Assembly: GCF_048403405.1 (NCBI RefSeq)
Contig: NZ_CP183130.1
Origin: Escherichia coli
GTDB taxonomy: Bacteria; Pseudomonadota; Gammaproteobacteria; Enterobacterales; Enterobacteriaceae
DNA length: 16,403 bases
Reading direction: 5' to 3' (one strand)
Shown: positions 3,144 to 6,296 of the stretch, in pieces
Numbering within the stretch: the stretch's first letter is position 1
Layout of the letters: each line of letters starts with the position of its first letter
Notes under the pieces: generated by a model
What the model saw: the letters and a program-made list of their open reading frames with translations, nothing else
What the model was told of the DNA's origin: nothing
Databases searched by the model: none
Program-made: the position numbers and the translations under genes

Positions 3144-3379
3144 GGGAATTCTCCTCTCACATGCGGCCTCCATCAGGCCGTGCCGCACCTGTAACCGGGC
3201 GACCGCATACGAATGCAGGTGCGGCCCCGAAGCCGCAGCGCGTGGAGGAGGAACGACGAAACGTGACCGGGTGAGGAGGCCGGCGACAGCGACACACTTG
3301 CATCGGATGCAGCCCGGTTAACGTGCCGGCACGGCCTGGGTAACCAGGTATTTTATTCACAGAACCGTGCGCAAAATGC

Positions 3380-3388
3380 TGTGGATAA
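3380..3388. promoter_or_regulatory. Perfect DnaA-box 9-mer (TGTGGATAA) in the GC-rich intergenic region upstream of the imp promoter
   Basis: Exact match to TTATCCACA on the complementary strand. A single 9-mer can occur by chance; function not established. Confidence 0.25.
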
Positions 3389-3466
3389 GCTGGACACAGC
3401 AGTCCACAGCAGGCATACAGCCACACTCCCAGAGAATTGAGCGTTTTTTAGTCACAATAATGACAT

Positions 3467-3515
3467 TTGACTGTGTGTGGATTCAGTTATTAGAATACTG
3501 TATATGCATACAGCA
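3467..3515 (+). promoter_or_regulatory. imp operon promoter (-35 TTGACT, -10 TAGAAT) with a LexA/SOS box TACTGTATATGCATACAGCA
   Basis: CTGT-N8-ACAG at 3498-3513 within TACTGTATATGCATACAGCA (3496-3515), close to the LexA consensus TACTGTATATATATACAGTA. TTGACT at 3467-3472 and TAGAAT at 3491-3496 with an 18-bp spacer. The box abuts the -10 and lies ~22 nt before the impC ATG. Confidence 0.8.
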
Positions 3516-3536
3516 ATAGAAAAGGGAGATGAGAAC

Positions 3537-3785
3537 ATGATCCGCATTGAAATTCTTTTCGACCGCCAGAGCACAAAAAACCTCAAATCAGGCACACTTC
3601 AGGCGCTACAGAATGAAATCGAACAACGTCTGAAACCACACTACCCGGAAATCTGGCTGCGTATAGACCAGGGCAGCGCCCCGTCTGTATCTGTCACAGG
3701 AGCCCGCAACGACAAGGATAAAGAACGTATCCTGTCTCTGCTGGAAGAAATCTGGCAGGACGACAGCTGGCTGCCTGCAGCATGA
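3537..3785 (+). CDS. impC: ImpC, small first gene of the impCAB SOS mutagenesis operon
   Basis: Internal ATG at 3537 with an AAGGGAG RBS gives 82 aa, the size I recall for ImpC of plasmid TP110. Stop overlaps the impA start (ATGA). Confidence 0.7.
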   Translation: MIRIEILFDRQSTKNLKSGTLQALQNEIEQRLKPHYPEIWLRIDQGSAPSVSVTGARNDKDKERILSLLEEIWQDDSWLPAA

Positions 3786-4219
3786 GTACCGTTTATCACC
3801 GTCCGGCTGACCCTTCAGGCGATGACAGTTACGTGCGACCGTTGTTTGCCGATCGTTGCCAGGCCGGTTTTCCTTCGCCTGCCACTGATTATGCTGAGCA
3901 GGAACTGGATCTGAACAGCTATTGCATCAGCAGACCTGCAGCCACCTTCTTTCTGCGCGCCAGCGGTGAATCGATGAACCAGGCTGGCGTGCAGAATGGT
4001 GATCTGCTGGTAGTGGACAGGGCCGAAAAACCACAACACGGGGACATCGTTATCGCTGAGATCGACGGTGAGTTCACCGTCAAACGACTGCTGTTGCGCC
4101 CACGCCCGGCACTGGAGCCGGTTTCAGACAGCCCGGAGTTCCGCACACTGTATCCGGAAAACATCTGTATTTTTGGTGTTGTCACTCACGTGATACACAG
4201 GACGCGGGAGTTACGCTGA
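3782..4219 (+). CDS. impA: ImpA/UmuD/MucA-family LexA-like self-cleaving accessory subunit of DNA polymerase V
   Basis: 145 aa; candidate Ala-Gly cleavage site (CQAGFP) and S24-peptidase-like GESM ... VKRL motifs. Translationally coupled to impC and impB. Confidence 0.9.
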   Translation: MSTVYHRPADPSGDDSYVRPLFADRCQAGFPSPATDYAEQELDLNSYCISRPAATFFLRASGESMNQAGVQNGDLLVVDRAEKPQHGDIVIAEIDGEFTVKRLLLRPRPALEPVSDSPEFRTLYPENICIFGVVTHVIHRTRELR

Positions 4220-5490
4220 TGTTTGCACTGGCTGATATCAACAGTTTCTACGCCTCATGTGAAAAAGTTTTCCGCCCGGACCTTCGCAACGAACCGGTCA
4301 TCGTACTCAGCAATAACGATGGCTGTGTGATCGCGCGCAGCCCGGAGGCAAAAGCCCTTGGCATCAAAATGGGGCAGCCCTGGTTTCAGGTGAGACAGAT
4401 GCGCCTGGAGAAGAAAATACATGTATTTTCCAGCAATTATGCGCTGTACCACAGCATGAGCCAACGGGTCATGGCTGTTCTGGAGTCGCTTTCTCCCGCA
4501 GTTGAGCCCTACTCAATTGATGAAATGTTTATTGATTTGCGGGGGATAAATCATTGCATCTCTCCGGATTTTTTTGGTCATCAGCTCAGGGAACAGGTAA
4601 AGAGCTGGACAGGACTCACCATGGGGGTGGGCATTGCGCCTACAAAAACGCTGGCTAAAAGTGCACAGTGGGCAACAAAGCAATGGCCACAGTTTTCCGG
4701 AGTGGTCGCGCTGACGGCAGAAAACCGTAATCGGACCTTGAAGCTACTGGGGCTGCAGCCAGTTGGTGAGGTCTGGGGAGTAGGACGCAGACTGACGGAA
4801 AAGCTGAATGCGCTGGGTATTAACACAGCACTGCAGCTGGCGCAGGCTAACACGGCATTCATCCGGAAAAACTTCAGCGTCATTCTTGAGCGTACGGTAC
4901 GCGAACTCAACGGCGAGTCCTGCATATCCCTGGAAGAAGCACCACCGGCAAAACAGCAGATTGTCTGTAGTCGCAGTTTTGGTGAACGAATCACAGACAA
5001 AGATGCCATGCACCAGGCTGTTGTTCAGTATGCAGAGCGGGCCGCAGAGAAACTACGTGGGGAGCGTCAGTATTGCCGGCAGGTGACGACATTTGTACGG
5101 ACATCCCCCTTTGCAGTAAAAGAACCCTGTTACAGCAATGCCGCTGTGGAAAAGCTTCCATTGCCCACACAGGACAGCCGGGACATTATTGCCGCCGCAT
5201 GCAGAGCCTTAAACCATGTCTGGCGTGAAGGGTACCGCTATATGAAGGCAGGAGTCATGCTGGCTGATTTCACACCATCGGGTATAGCACAGCCGGGATT
5301 ATTTGATGAAATCCAGCCCCGTAAAAACAGTGAAAAGTTAATGAAAACACTCGATGAACTGAACCAGTCGGGAAAAGGGACAGTGTGGTTTGCGGGGCGA
5401 GGAACCGCCCCTGAGTGGCAAATGAAACGGGAAATGCTTTCTCCTGCGTATACCACCAGATGGACAGATTTGCCAGTAGCCCAGTTATGA
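4219..5490 (+). CDS. impB: ImpB/UmuC/MucB-family Y-family translesion DNA polymerase
   Basis: 423 aa; N-terminus MFALADINSFYASCEKVFRPDL...VIVLSNNDGCVIARSPEAKALGIKMG is near-identical in pattern to UmuC. Start overlaps the impA stop. Confidence 0.9.
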   Translation: MFALADINSFYASCEKVFRPDLRNEPVIVLSNNDGCVIARSPEAKALGIKMGQPWFQVRQMRLEKKIHVFSSNYALYHSMSQRVMAVLESLSPAVEPYSIDEMFIDLRGINHCISPDFFGHQLREQVKSWTGLTMGVGIAPTKTLAKSAQWATKQWPQFSGVVALTAENRNRTLKLLGLQPVGEVWGVGRRLTEKLNALGINTALQLAQANTAFIRKNFSVILERTVRELNGESCISLEEAPPAKQQIVCSRSFGERITDKDAMHQAVVQYAERAAEKLRGERQYCRQVTTFVRTSPFAVKEPCYSNAAVEKLPLPTQDSRDIIAAACRALNHVWREGYRYMKAGVMLADFTPSGIAQPGLFDEIQPRKNSEKLMKTLDELNQSGKGTVWFAGRGTAPEWQMKREMLSPAYTTRWTDLPVAQL

Positions 5491-5512
5491 ATATGTAATC
5501 CACCCATAATAT

Positions 5513-5544
5513 TGTTATCTTGTTATCTTGTTATCTTGTTATCT
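5513..5544 (+). repeat. Upstream centromere-like iterons: four tandem 8-bp TGTTATCT (TTATCTTG-phase) repeats
   Basis: Direct reading: tgttatct x4 at 5513-5544, immediately after the impB stop and ~125 bp before parA. Confidence 0.7.
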
Positions 5545-5567
5545 TAATTAATCTATAAATCAAATAC

Positions 5568-5657
5568 TTAACAGCTTGTTAAGTTGTTAACATAACAAAA
5601 ATAATTGCATGGTTCGCGTTCAGATGGCAATATTAAGTTGTTAACTTAACAGCTTAA
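5568..5657 (+). promoter_or_regulatory. parA promoter/operator: two related near-palindromic sites built from GTTAAC-like half-sites
   Basis: Site 1 ttaacagcttgttaagttgttaac (5568-5591) and site 2 ttaagttgttaacttaacagcttaa (5633-5657) contain the same two motifs in swapped order. A candidate -35 TTGCAT (5606-5611) lies between them. Typical architecture for autoregulated small-ParA operons. Confidence 0.5.
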
Positions 5658-5669
5658 TATGAGGCTATA

Positions 5670-6296
5670 ATGATAATAGTATTAGGTAGTCAAAAGGGTG
5701 GGGTAGGTAAAAGTACACTGGCGGTATCTATAGCTGCGTATCTGATGTCACTAGGCAATAGAGTGATTATTGTCGACGCAGATGACCAGAAATCAGTATT
5801 AACCTGGTACAACAATCGCCCTGAAGATTTCCCTCATATTCCGGTTACAGGCGCGACAGGTAACATCAAAGCCATGTTAAAGGAACACGAAAAATCCTAT
5901 GATTTTGTTATTGCAGACTGTGCTGGCCGTGATAGCGCAGAAATGCGTAGTGGATTGATGGCCGCAGATGTATTCATTTCTCCTTTGCGCCCATCTCAGA
6001 TGGACCTGGATGTTGTGCCTCATACATGCTCCGTTTTTACAGCAGCAAAAGATTTTAATGAGGATGTTCGGGGATATCTCGTTTTAAACATGACGCCCAC
6101 AAATATGTTTGTTAATGAAGCCAATGAGGCAGCTGAAGTACTTAAGGATTACCCTGAAATGCATCTGGCAAACTCCCGGGTATGTGATCGTAAAGCACAT
6201 CGAGATGCTTGGGCCGAATCAATGACAATTTTTGAAACGCAAAATGATAAAGCCCAGCAAGAAATCGAAGCGTTAGTGAAAGAGGTTATTCTGTGA
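5670..6296 (+). CDS. parA: Small ParA/ParF-type Walker ATPase (type Ib partition)
   Basis: 208 aa; deviant Walker A GSQKGGVGKST near the N-terminus. Size and layout match ParF-like partition ATPases. GAGG RBS. Confidence 0.85.
   Translation: MIIVLGSQKGGVGKSTLAVSIAAYLMSLGNRVIIVDADDQKSVLTWYNNRPEDFPHIPVTGATGNIKAMLKEHEKSYDFVIADCAGRDSAEMRSGLMAADVFISPLRPSQMDLDVVPHTCSVFTAAKDFNEDVRGYLVLNMTPTNMFVNEANEAAEVLKDYPEMHLANSRVCDRKAHRDAWAESMTIFETQNDKAQQEIEALVKEVIL

Follow-up and report, generated by a model that had tools for sequence, protein, structure and literature searches.

A complete impCAB operon of the I-complex plasmid type with a predicted LexA operator in Escherichia coli

Positions 3467–5490 of the window, which is the whole 16,403-nt stretch of Escherichia coli DNA that was analysed, almost certainly hold a complete plasmid copy of impCAB, the I-complex/IncI counterpart of umuDC, under the control of the host repressor LexA. 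The region opens at the start of the -35 hexamer and closes with the end of the impB stop codon, and the three reading frames 3537–3785, 3782–4219 and 4219–5490 are all intact, as the initial annotation had proposed. The evidence consists of the integrity of the genes, the family membership of their products, the conserved residues, and the operator and promoter sequences together with their conservation, and nothing in the sequence contradicts an explanation by impCAB and LexA. The features are the following:

3467–3472, plus strand, -35 hexamer TTGACT, part of the best promoter-like match in 3150–5750
3469–3488, weak second LexA-like site GACTGTGTGTGGATTCAGTT, with CTG-N10-CAG at 3471–3486
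3491–3496, plus strand, -10 hexamer TAGAAT, from the same promoter match as the -35 hexamer
3496–3515, main predicted LexA operator (SOS box) TACTGTATATGCATACAGCA, found by consensus match
3524–3529, plus strand, Shine-Dalgarno sequence GGGAGA for impC, 7 nt before the ATG at 3537
3537–3785, plus strand, impC, encoding an 82-aa DinI-like protein (Pfam DinI)
3782–4219, plus strand, impA, encoding a 145-aa UmuD-like S24 protein, predicted to be self-cleaving (Peptidase_S24)
4206–4210, plus strand, Shine-Dalgarno sequence GGGAG for impB, within the 3' end of impA and 8 nt before the ATG at 4219
4219–5490, plus strand, impB, encoding a 423-aa UmuC-like predicted Y-family DNA polymerase (Pfam and NCBIfam)

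The genes lie on the same strand in the order impC-impA-impB, and both the list of open reading frames and a reading of the sequence show stop/start overlaps at the two junctions. The impC stop and the impA start share the ATGA at 3782–3785, and the impA stop and the impB start share the TGATG at 4217–4221, which is also the junction between umuD and umuC of K-12. To judge from these overlaps the imp genes are probably translationally coupled; impC and impB have Shine-Dalgarno sequences of their own and impA alone is without one. The same order of dinI-like, umuD-like and umuC-like genes, with overlaps as here, is found in impCAB of TP110 (IncI1), pTF2, pMS7163B and the Shigella virulence plasmid, and the promoter and both LexA sites are likewise as in known impCAB systems such as that of pTF2. 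The operon has the properties of the TP110 type, namely gene order on one strand, overlapping junctions, curated names for ImpC and ImpA, and ImpB alleles that are 97–99% identical. Minus-strand reading frames at 4584–5009, 3922–4185, 5241–5507 and 4747–5013 inside the operon have no Pfam match and were rejected as spurious. No Rfam match was found in or near the operon, the sole one being PK-repZ at 12084–12232.

The inferred product of impC matches the Pfam DinI family (PF06183) with 65 bits (cut-off 24.2), and its residues 3–79 are collinear with residues 2–78 of DinI in structure 1GHH (E = 7e-6), including the acidic C-terminal helix of this E. coli SOS protein. The NCBIfam DinI equivalog model NF007893 gives 41.1 bits, below its cut-off of 111, and ImpC is therefore regarded as a paralogue of DinI that may differ from it in function. 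In contrast to DinI, ImpC shares its transcript with the pathway that it presumably targets; DinI modulates the RecA-dependent cleavage of UmuD (PMC6590174). The exact sequence bears the curated name IMPC_ECOLX. The longest reading frame holding impC opens at GTG 3477, and in some RefSeq records the start is placed at 3504, within the operator, but a true start at 3537 agrees with the Shine-Dalgarno sequence, with the alignment to DinI and with the curated entry of 82 aa. This Shine-Dalgarno sequence is kept across the compared alleles, in one of them as GGAAGA.

ImpA scores 85.2 bits with Pfam Peptidase_S24 (PF00717, threshold 23.3) and 143.4 bits with NCBIfam NF007621 for the autoproteolytic subunit of pol V (cut-off 110), shows 49% identity to UmuD of K-12, and its exact sequence bears the curated name IMPA_ECOLX. 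When aligned to 8GMT, 1UMU and K-12 UmuD, Ser64 and Lys101 fall on Ser60 and Lys97 of UmuD, and Ala28-Gly29 corresponds to the UmuD cleavage site Cys24-Gly25, where the UmuD' structure 1UMU begins at the residue aligned with Gly29. Both the Ser/Lys dyad and an Ala/Cys-Gly cleavage site are consequently found at the expected positions. The Ala-Gly of ImpA is shared with LexA and MucA, whereas UmuD has Cys-Gly, and the N-terminal arm of ImpA is slightly longer than that of UmuD.

ImpB contains the Pfam domains IMS, IMS_HHH, IMS_C and DUF4113, scores 798 bits with the NCBIfam UmuC subfamily model NF002955 (cut-off 431) over model positions 1–421 of 422, and shows 59% identity to UmuC of K-12 along its whole length. 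With the family thresholds passed and these identities to the K-12 proteins, the earlier assignment of the products to the UmuD and UmuC families holds. In the alignments of ImpB with other alleles and with UmuC, Asp6, Phe10, Tyr11, Asp101 and Glu102 are invariant, and Q358-P-G-L-F362 stands opposite Q357-L-N-L-F361 of UmuC. From what is known of UmuC we take Asp6, Asp101 and Glu102 to be the catalytic carboxylates, Tyr11 the steric gate and QxxLF the motif binding the beta-clamp, and ImpB possesses all of them. This 423-aa allele of the protein is widespread, is also found under the label 'protein ImpB [Shigella sonnei]' and has an ImpB-named member in its 90% cluster, and it is 97–99% identical to other ImpB alleles, one of which has 424 residues and ends in ...SQCYTTKWRDIPLARLG, whereas the one described here ends in ...SPAYTTRWTDLPVAQL.

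Compared with the chromosomal umuDC (pol V) of K-12, the imp operon also has a LexA box at the promoter, and the catalytic residues and the positions of the cleavage site and the clamp motif are all alike; unlike umuDC, imp is plasmid-borne and has an additional dinI-like gene as the first in the operon. Other LexA-regulated umuDC-like pairs on plasmids or ICEs, namely mucAB (pKM101/R46), samAB and rumAB, perform error-prone translesion synthesis, but these are two-gene operons that are not known to have a dinI-like first gene as imp does. PMC6590174 refers to MucAB and RumA'2B.

The imp promoter (3467–3496) is σ70-like, with an 18-nt spacer and 10 of 12 matches, the sole match of this quality in 3150–5750. 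Its -35 and -10 hexamers are unchanged in eight allelic variants from IncI, IncK/Z and IncF plasmids, and transcription is expected to start around 3503. The 20-bp box TACTGTATATGCATACAGCA agrees with the consensus TACTG(TA)5CAGTA at 17 of 20 positions, i.e. with three mismatches, and its CTGT-N8-ACAG core is perfect. It is the only site in the window with three mismatches or fewer, and no such site arose in 200 shuffles. The half-sites CTGTATA and ATACAG are invariant in eight alleles, the variable positions being 10–12 in the centre and 2, 19 and 20 in the flanks. A member of the LexA regulon should have a palindromic 20-bp box in which the CTG and CAG half-sites are intact and the heterology index (HI) is low, as is the case here. 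The HI of the box is 2.7 on a matrix that was rebuilt from known E. coli sites, and which follows ten published values but reads 0–5 units low, so that the value corresponds to roughly 3–4 on the published scale.

The box abuts the -10 hexamer and spans the expected +1, a placement suited to blocking the promoter. The initial annotation had described a near-consensus SOS box overlapping the -10 element; the near-consensus match is borne out, but the overlap amounts to a single base, T3496, and the box lies mainly over +1. That description also overlooked the weak second site at 3469–3488, which overlaps the -35 hexamer and the spacer and is conserved among the compared alleles except for one T/C position. 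The reverse complement of this site, AACTGAATCCACACACAGTC, is identical to the second of the two LexA sites predicted at impCAB in pTF2, which has an HI of 13.49 (PMC12211044). Motifs of the type CTG-N10-CAG occur 14 times in the window against 4.5 expected, probably because CTG and CAG codons are frequent; the surplus motifs were considered as further LexA sites and rejected, most of them being intragenic.

In the IncI1 plasmid pTF2 both LexA sites are predicted at impCAB, and the HI of the main box is 1.60 (PMC12211044), for which the rebuilt matrix gives 0.74. The pTF2 box is one central base apart from TACTGTATATGCATACAGCA, with A instead of G at position 11. Proteomics of a mutated-lexA strain of hyper-induced SOS showed ImpC up 21-fold, ImpA 9-fold and ImpB 2-fold (PMC12211044). 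LexA control has thus already been shown for a near-identical allele, and it presumably applies to the exact allele in the window as well.

On this plasmid the operon would work as follows. In an undamaged cell a LexA dimer should occupy the strong operator at 3496–3515, over the transcription start, and the weaker site at 3469–3488, over the -35 region, may assist in excluding RNA polymerase. DNA damage or incoming single-stranded DNA would give rise to RecA filaments, self-cleavage of LexA and the synthesis of one mRNA. ImpC should be translated from this mRNA by means of its own Shine-Dalgarno sequence; ribosomes that terminate at the ATGA overlap should go on to translate ImpA, and ImpB should be made through the TGATG overlap together with its own GGGAG. 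On the RecA filament ImpA is predicted to cleave itself between Ala28 and Gly29 via the Ser64/Lys101 dyad, and the resulting ImpA' dimer would join ImpB in an ImpA'2-ImpB complex, a presumptive pol V-like translesion polymerase that could contact the beta-clamp through the motif QPGLF and bypass lesions at a mutational cost. ImpC, being a DinI paralogue, most probably has a modulating effect on the RecA filament and hence on the timing of ImpA processing. ImpB increases only 2-fold in pTF2, and the amount of active polymerase may therefore be small.

Three other readings of the locus were weighed. That the palindrome resembles an SOS box only by chance or as a vestige, leaving the operon outside LexA control, is extremely unlikely: the frequency of CTG-N10-CAG in the window speaks for it, but the number of consensus matches, the perfect core and the shuffles speak against it, as do the exact position of the box at -10/+1 of the sole strong promoter, the invariance of the half-sites across lineages and the response of the pTF2 allele, one base different, to lost LexA repression (PMC12211044). 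It is also very unlikely that the operon, intact in sequence, is practically silent and passive backbone cargo, owing to a very strong operator and the need for ImpA processing. An HI of about 3 belongs to the tightest class of operators, the induction of ImpB in pTF2 is merely about 2-fold (PMC12211044), and about 212 plasmid records with an operator split by an ISL3-family element still persist, all of which would be in line with silence. Against it, the catalytic residues are all intact, and the median dN/dS values among 460 I-complex plasmids, 0.001 for impC, 0.001 for impA and 0.11 for impB, show that all three are under strong purifying selection (PMC10286972). Phenotypes have moreover been reported for imp of TP110 and of the Shigella plasmid, namely UV protection and mutagenesis, as cited in PMC12211044 and PMC10286972.

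Those same phenotypes bear on the third reading, in which an intact operon benefits mainly the damage tolerance or establishment of the plasmid and not host mutability; ImpC would temper RecA and the SOS response on single-stranded entry into a new cell, while the replication of the plasmid would be protected by translesion synthesis. In favour of it, the leading-transfer region contains or adjoins the operon, with genes for ParM/StbA, DUF1281, a methylase, anti-restriction and ssb nearby (see also PMC10286972). Against it, the imp genes are on the strand opposite to the adjacent leading-region genes and so differ from them in orientation, and any link to early single-strand transcription is presumptive. 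In its favour again, the induction is greatest for ImpC (PMC12211044), DinI-family proteins modulate RecA filaments (PMC6590174), and overexpression of impCAB causes a severe growth defect, a toxicity by which expression would be held low (PMC10286972). In pTF2, however, deletion of impC, impA, impB or the whole operon left the SOS level and the conjugation frequency unchanged (PMC12211044), and UV protection and mutagenesis are the phenotypes on record. A main role in plasmid establishment is accordingly considered unlikely, and a LexA-controlled counterpart of umuDC is the reading retained.

An effect of imp on survival and mutation was established for TP110 in the 1980s–1990s, and the operon was revisited in 2023–2025 with pMS7163B (PMC10286972) and pTF2 (PMC12211044). 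Many I-complex plasmids match bases 3300–5600 with 100% identity, and a search of 72,556 plasmid records found the imp promoter in 2,492 of them. Identical DNA on many plasmids, the curated names of ImpC and ImpA and the published induction in pTF2 (PMC12211044) agree with the initial annotation that this is well known biology; the operon is complete and ordinary, and the value of the window lies only in its correct annotation, with an intact operon and impC starting at 3537. More generally, impCAB equips a widespread family of resistance plasmids with a damage-inducible error-prone polymerase, which can increase survival and the supply of mutations under UV or SOS-inducing antibiotics.

The sole mildly new item comes from other plasmids, where insertion sequences of the ISL3 family have repeatedly split the imp LexA box at its exact centre; the records with such a split box make up about 8% of those in which the imp promoter occurs. 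No terminator is present between impB and the parAB partition genes in this window, and SOS induction could therefore raise the transcription of the partition genes as well. From this, the imp operator might be pictured as an evolving control point, with a lineage-variable centre tuning repression, ISL3 insertions uncoupling the operon from LexA, and SOS read-through into the partition genes, a picture that we consider distinctly improbable. Whereas the imp operon is intact, the neighbouring yagA and proQ/finO are frameshifted by indels when compared with a close relative. Upstream of the operon the region 3180–3440 was considered as a dispersed single-strand-promoter repeat of the leading region; it is single-copy in the window and in 20 kb of pKPC-LKEc, and it is structured, folding better than shuffled sequences (z = -3.96).

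The initial annotation had described a complete, LexA-controlled impCAB operon at 3467–5490, and its two end points match the -35 hexamer and the stop codon of impB. The three genes are indeed intact, forming consecutive plus-strand ORFs with no truncation, frameshift or active-site loss found in the sequence or the alignments.

Features of the imp region and its surroundings
3467–3472 (TTGACT) and 3491–3496 (TAGAAT), plus strand, 18 nt apart: imp promoter (promoter scan)
3469–3488: second, weak LexA-like site, with CTG-N10-CAG at 3471–3486 (motif match)
3496–3515: main LexA box, TACTGTATATGCATACAGCA (consensus scan)
3537 (ATG) to 3785 (stop), plus strand: impC, 82 aa (sequence and ORF list)
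3782–4219, plus strand: impA, 145 aa (ORF list)
4219–5490, plus strand: impB, 423 aa (ORF list)
left of imp, strand opposite to imp: ParM/StbA and a DUF1281 gene
right of imp, in order: ParA, a small ParB-like gene, yagA, proQ/finO, and repA with the PK-repZ pseudoknot
12084–12232, minus strand: PK-repZ pseudoknot, upstream of repA (Rfam, 189 bits)

The stop codon of impC and the start of impA share the ATGA at 3782–3785, and those of impA and impB the TGATG at 4217–4221, which is also the umuD/umuC junction of K-12. GGGAGA is located 7 nt before the impC start and GGGAG 8 nt upstream of impB, with no recognisable Shine-Dalgarno sequence before impA. These overlaps, and the missing site before impA, make translational coupling reasonable to infer, above all for impA. 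In some RefSeq records the DinI-like gene begins at 3504, an ATG within the SOS box (93 aa), and in the pEC3I record further upstream still (136 aa); 3537 rather than 3504 is indicated in agreement by the Shine-Dalgarno sequence, the alignment to DinI and the curated entry of 82 aa.

The imp promoter is the one 10/12 match of the promoter scan in 3150–5750. No site in the window other than TACTGTATATGCATACAGCA, whose CTGT-N8-ACAG core is perfect, comes within 3 mismatches of the LexA consensus, and 200 shuffles gave none. The box is thus near-consensus as annotated, but its supposed overlap with the -10 element amounts to one base only, and it lies mainly over the expected start site. The second site overlaps the -35 hexamer. 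Two LexA sites have also been predicted for impCAB of the IncI1 plasmid pTF2 in a 2025 study (PMC12211044), namely TACTGTATATACATACAGCA with a heterology index (HI) of 1.60, which differs from the window box in one central base, and AACTGAATCCACACACAGTC with an HI of 13.49, identical to the reverse complement of 3469–3488. With an HI matrix reconstructed from E. coli operators, which is not the published one, the window box scores 2.7 and the allele published at 1.60 scores 0.74; in terms of the published values, this offset would put the window box at roughly 3–4, comparable to the tightest operators of the chromosome. In an alignment of eight alleles of the promoter, taken from IncI, IncK/Z and IncF plasmids, the -35, the -10 and both half-sites of the main operator are invariant. 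The main box varies at positions 10–12 in its centre and, in its flanks, at positions 2, 19 and 20, as would be expected for a functional LexA site, though the sequences are closely related; the second site has one variable T/C position and is otherwise conserved. The sole other CTGT-N8-ACAG of the window, CTCTGTATTTGTTCACAGTG at 10718–10737, is non-coding and 3' of the minus-strand repA, with a borderline HI of about 11 by the reconstructed matrix.

While 3496–3515 is an intact 'empty site' in the window, ISL3-family insertion sequences recur exactly at the centre of the imp operator in other plasmids (L013:266–340 and L012:3546–3620), with 8-bp target duplications. The element is ISKox3 in p91_CMY-42 (duplication ATATGCAT) and, in the opposite orientation and with a ClbS-like passenger gene, ISEc53 in pE16EC0853-1 (duplication ATATACAT). 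With the insertion in place, impC is about 1.3 kb (ISKox3) or 1.9 kb (ISEc53) away from the promoter and one half of the operator. Junction searches found 13 and 199 records respectively, together about 8% of the approximately 2,492 plasmid records with the imp promoter.

The products align with the UmuD and UmuC families, as annotated. ImpA passes the Peptidase_S24 model and, with 143 bits (cut-off 110), the model for the autoproteolytic subunit of pol V; its identity to K-12 UmuD is 49%. The UmuD cleavage site Cys24-Gly25 corresponds to Ala28-Gly29, Gly29 aligns with the first residue of the UmuD' structure 1UMU, and the Ser60/Lys97 dyad has its counterparts by alignment in Ser64 and Lys101. 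ImpB is 59% identical to UmuC and scores 798 bits against the UmuC subfamily model (cut-off 431), covering positions 1–421 of 422. It contains the Pfam domains IMS, HhH, IMS_C and DUF4113, conserves Asp6, Phe10, Tyr11, Asp101 and Glu102, and its QPGLF (358–362) is aligned with the UmuC clamp-binding motif. ImpC passes Pfam DinI (65 bits, threshold 24.2) and aligns end to end with the DinI structure 1GHH; as its 41 bits against the NCBI DinI equivalog model are under the cut-off of 111, ImpC is classed by sequence as a DinI paralogue.

LexA would repress the operon until damage leads to RecA filaments and LexA cleavage, and the tricistronic mRNA should be translated with falling yield along the operon. 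ImpA would cleave itself on RecA to ImpA', an ImpA'2-ImpB complex would act as a pol V-like translesion polymerase, and ImpC would modulate RecA as DinI does (PMC6590174). This LexA/RecA/pol V-like account is the standard one and the best supported. The published imp phenotypes fit it: for TP110 and the Shigella plasmid, protection against UV and mutagenesis have been reported, as cited in PMC12211044 and PMC10286972. LexA control is likewise supported. A chance match as the origin of the box is contradicted by its position, the statistics, the conservation and the published induction, where ImpC, ImpA and ImpB of pTF2 rise 21-, 9- and 2-fold in a mutated-lexA strain with hyper-induced SOS (PMC12211044).

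Overexpression of impCAB gives a severe growth defect (PMC10286972), and deletions of imp genes in pTF2 left SOS levels and conjugation frequency unaltered (PMC12211044). An effectively silent operon is argued against by the reported phenotypes and by strong purifying selection, the median dN/dS being 0.001 for both impC and impA, and 0.11 for impB (PMC10286972). Possibly the operon's main role lies in establishing the plasmid or in tolerating damage, with ImpC central to it, which is largely a difference of emphasis from the standard account. The biology of impCAB is already known.

Exact-sequence look-up gives the UniRef names IMPC_ECOLX and IMPA_ECOLX for ImpC and ImpA, and ImpB is a common allele of 423 aa that also carries the label 'protein ImpB [Shigella sonnei]'. 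A 424-aa allele departs from it mainly within the last ~15 residues, and both are full-length against UmuC. The C-terminus ...SPAYTTRWTDLPVAQL is found in the window (gene 3' end, 5440–5490) and Shigella sonnei, and ...SQCYTTKWRDIPLARLG in Salmonella members of the aligned ImpB cluster; the two C-termini suggest a recombination breakpoint close to the 3' end of impB. No terminator-like hairpin was found on the plus strand from impB to position 7300. The spacer before parA contains four tandem TTGTTATC units (5512–5545), where the related plasmid pKPC-LKEc has seven. Beyond them, AT-rich inverted repeats (TTAAGTTGTTAAC...) surround promoter-like sites of parA (5566–5660). These repeats probably serve the ParA/ParB-like pair as its partition site or operator.

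The region 3300–5600 is 100% identical to many E. coli, Salmonella and Klebsiella plasmids, and the promoter region 3420–3560 is present in 2,492 of 72,556 plasmid records. The backbone is I-complex, IncB/O/K/Z-like, the replicon being confirmed by the PK-repZ match. Compared with pKPC-LKEc there are 1–2 bp indels at 114, 7231, 8295, 8419 and 8965 and none in the imp region; they put yagA (at three sites) and proQ/finO out of frame, and also touch an stbB-like gene at the left end. The indels reflect either genuine pseudogenes or errors of sequencing. The intergenic minus strand of 3180–3440, which lies upstream of the DUF1281 gene, folds as ssDNA at -59.8 kcal/mol, much better than shuffles (z = -3.96). 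This segment occurs once in the 20 kb examined and is present in 4,390 plasmid records, far above the count for the imp promoter. For the leading-region gene it could represent a structured leader, or else an element resembling a single-strand promoter.
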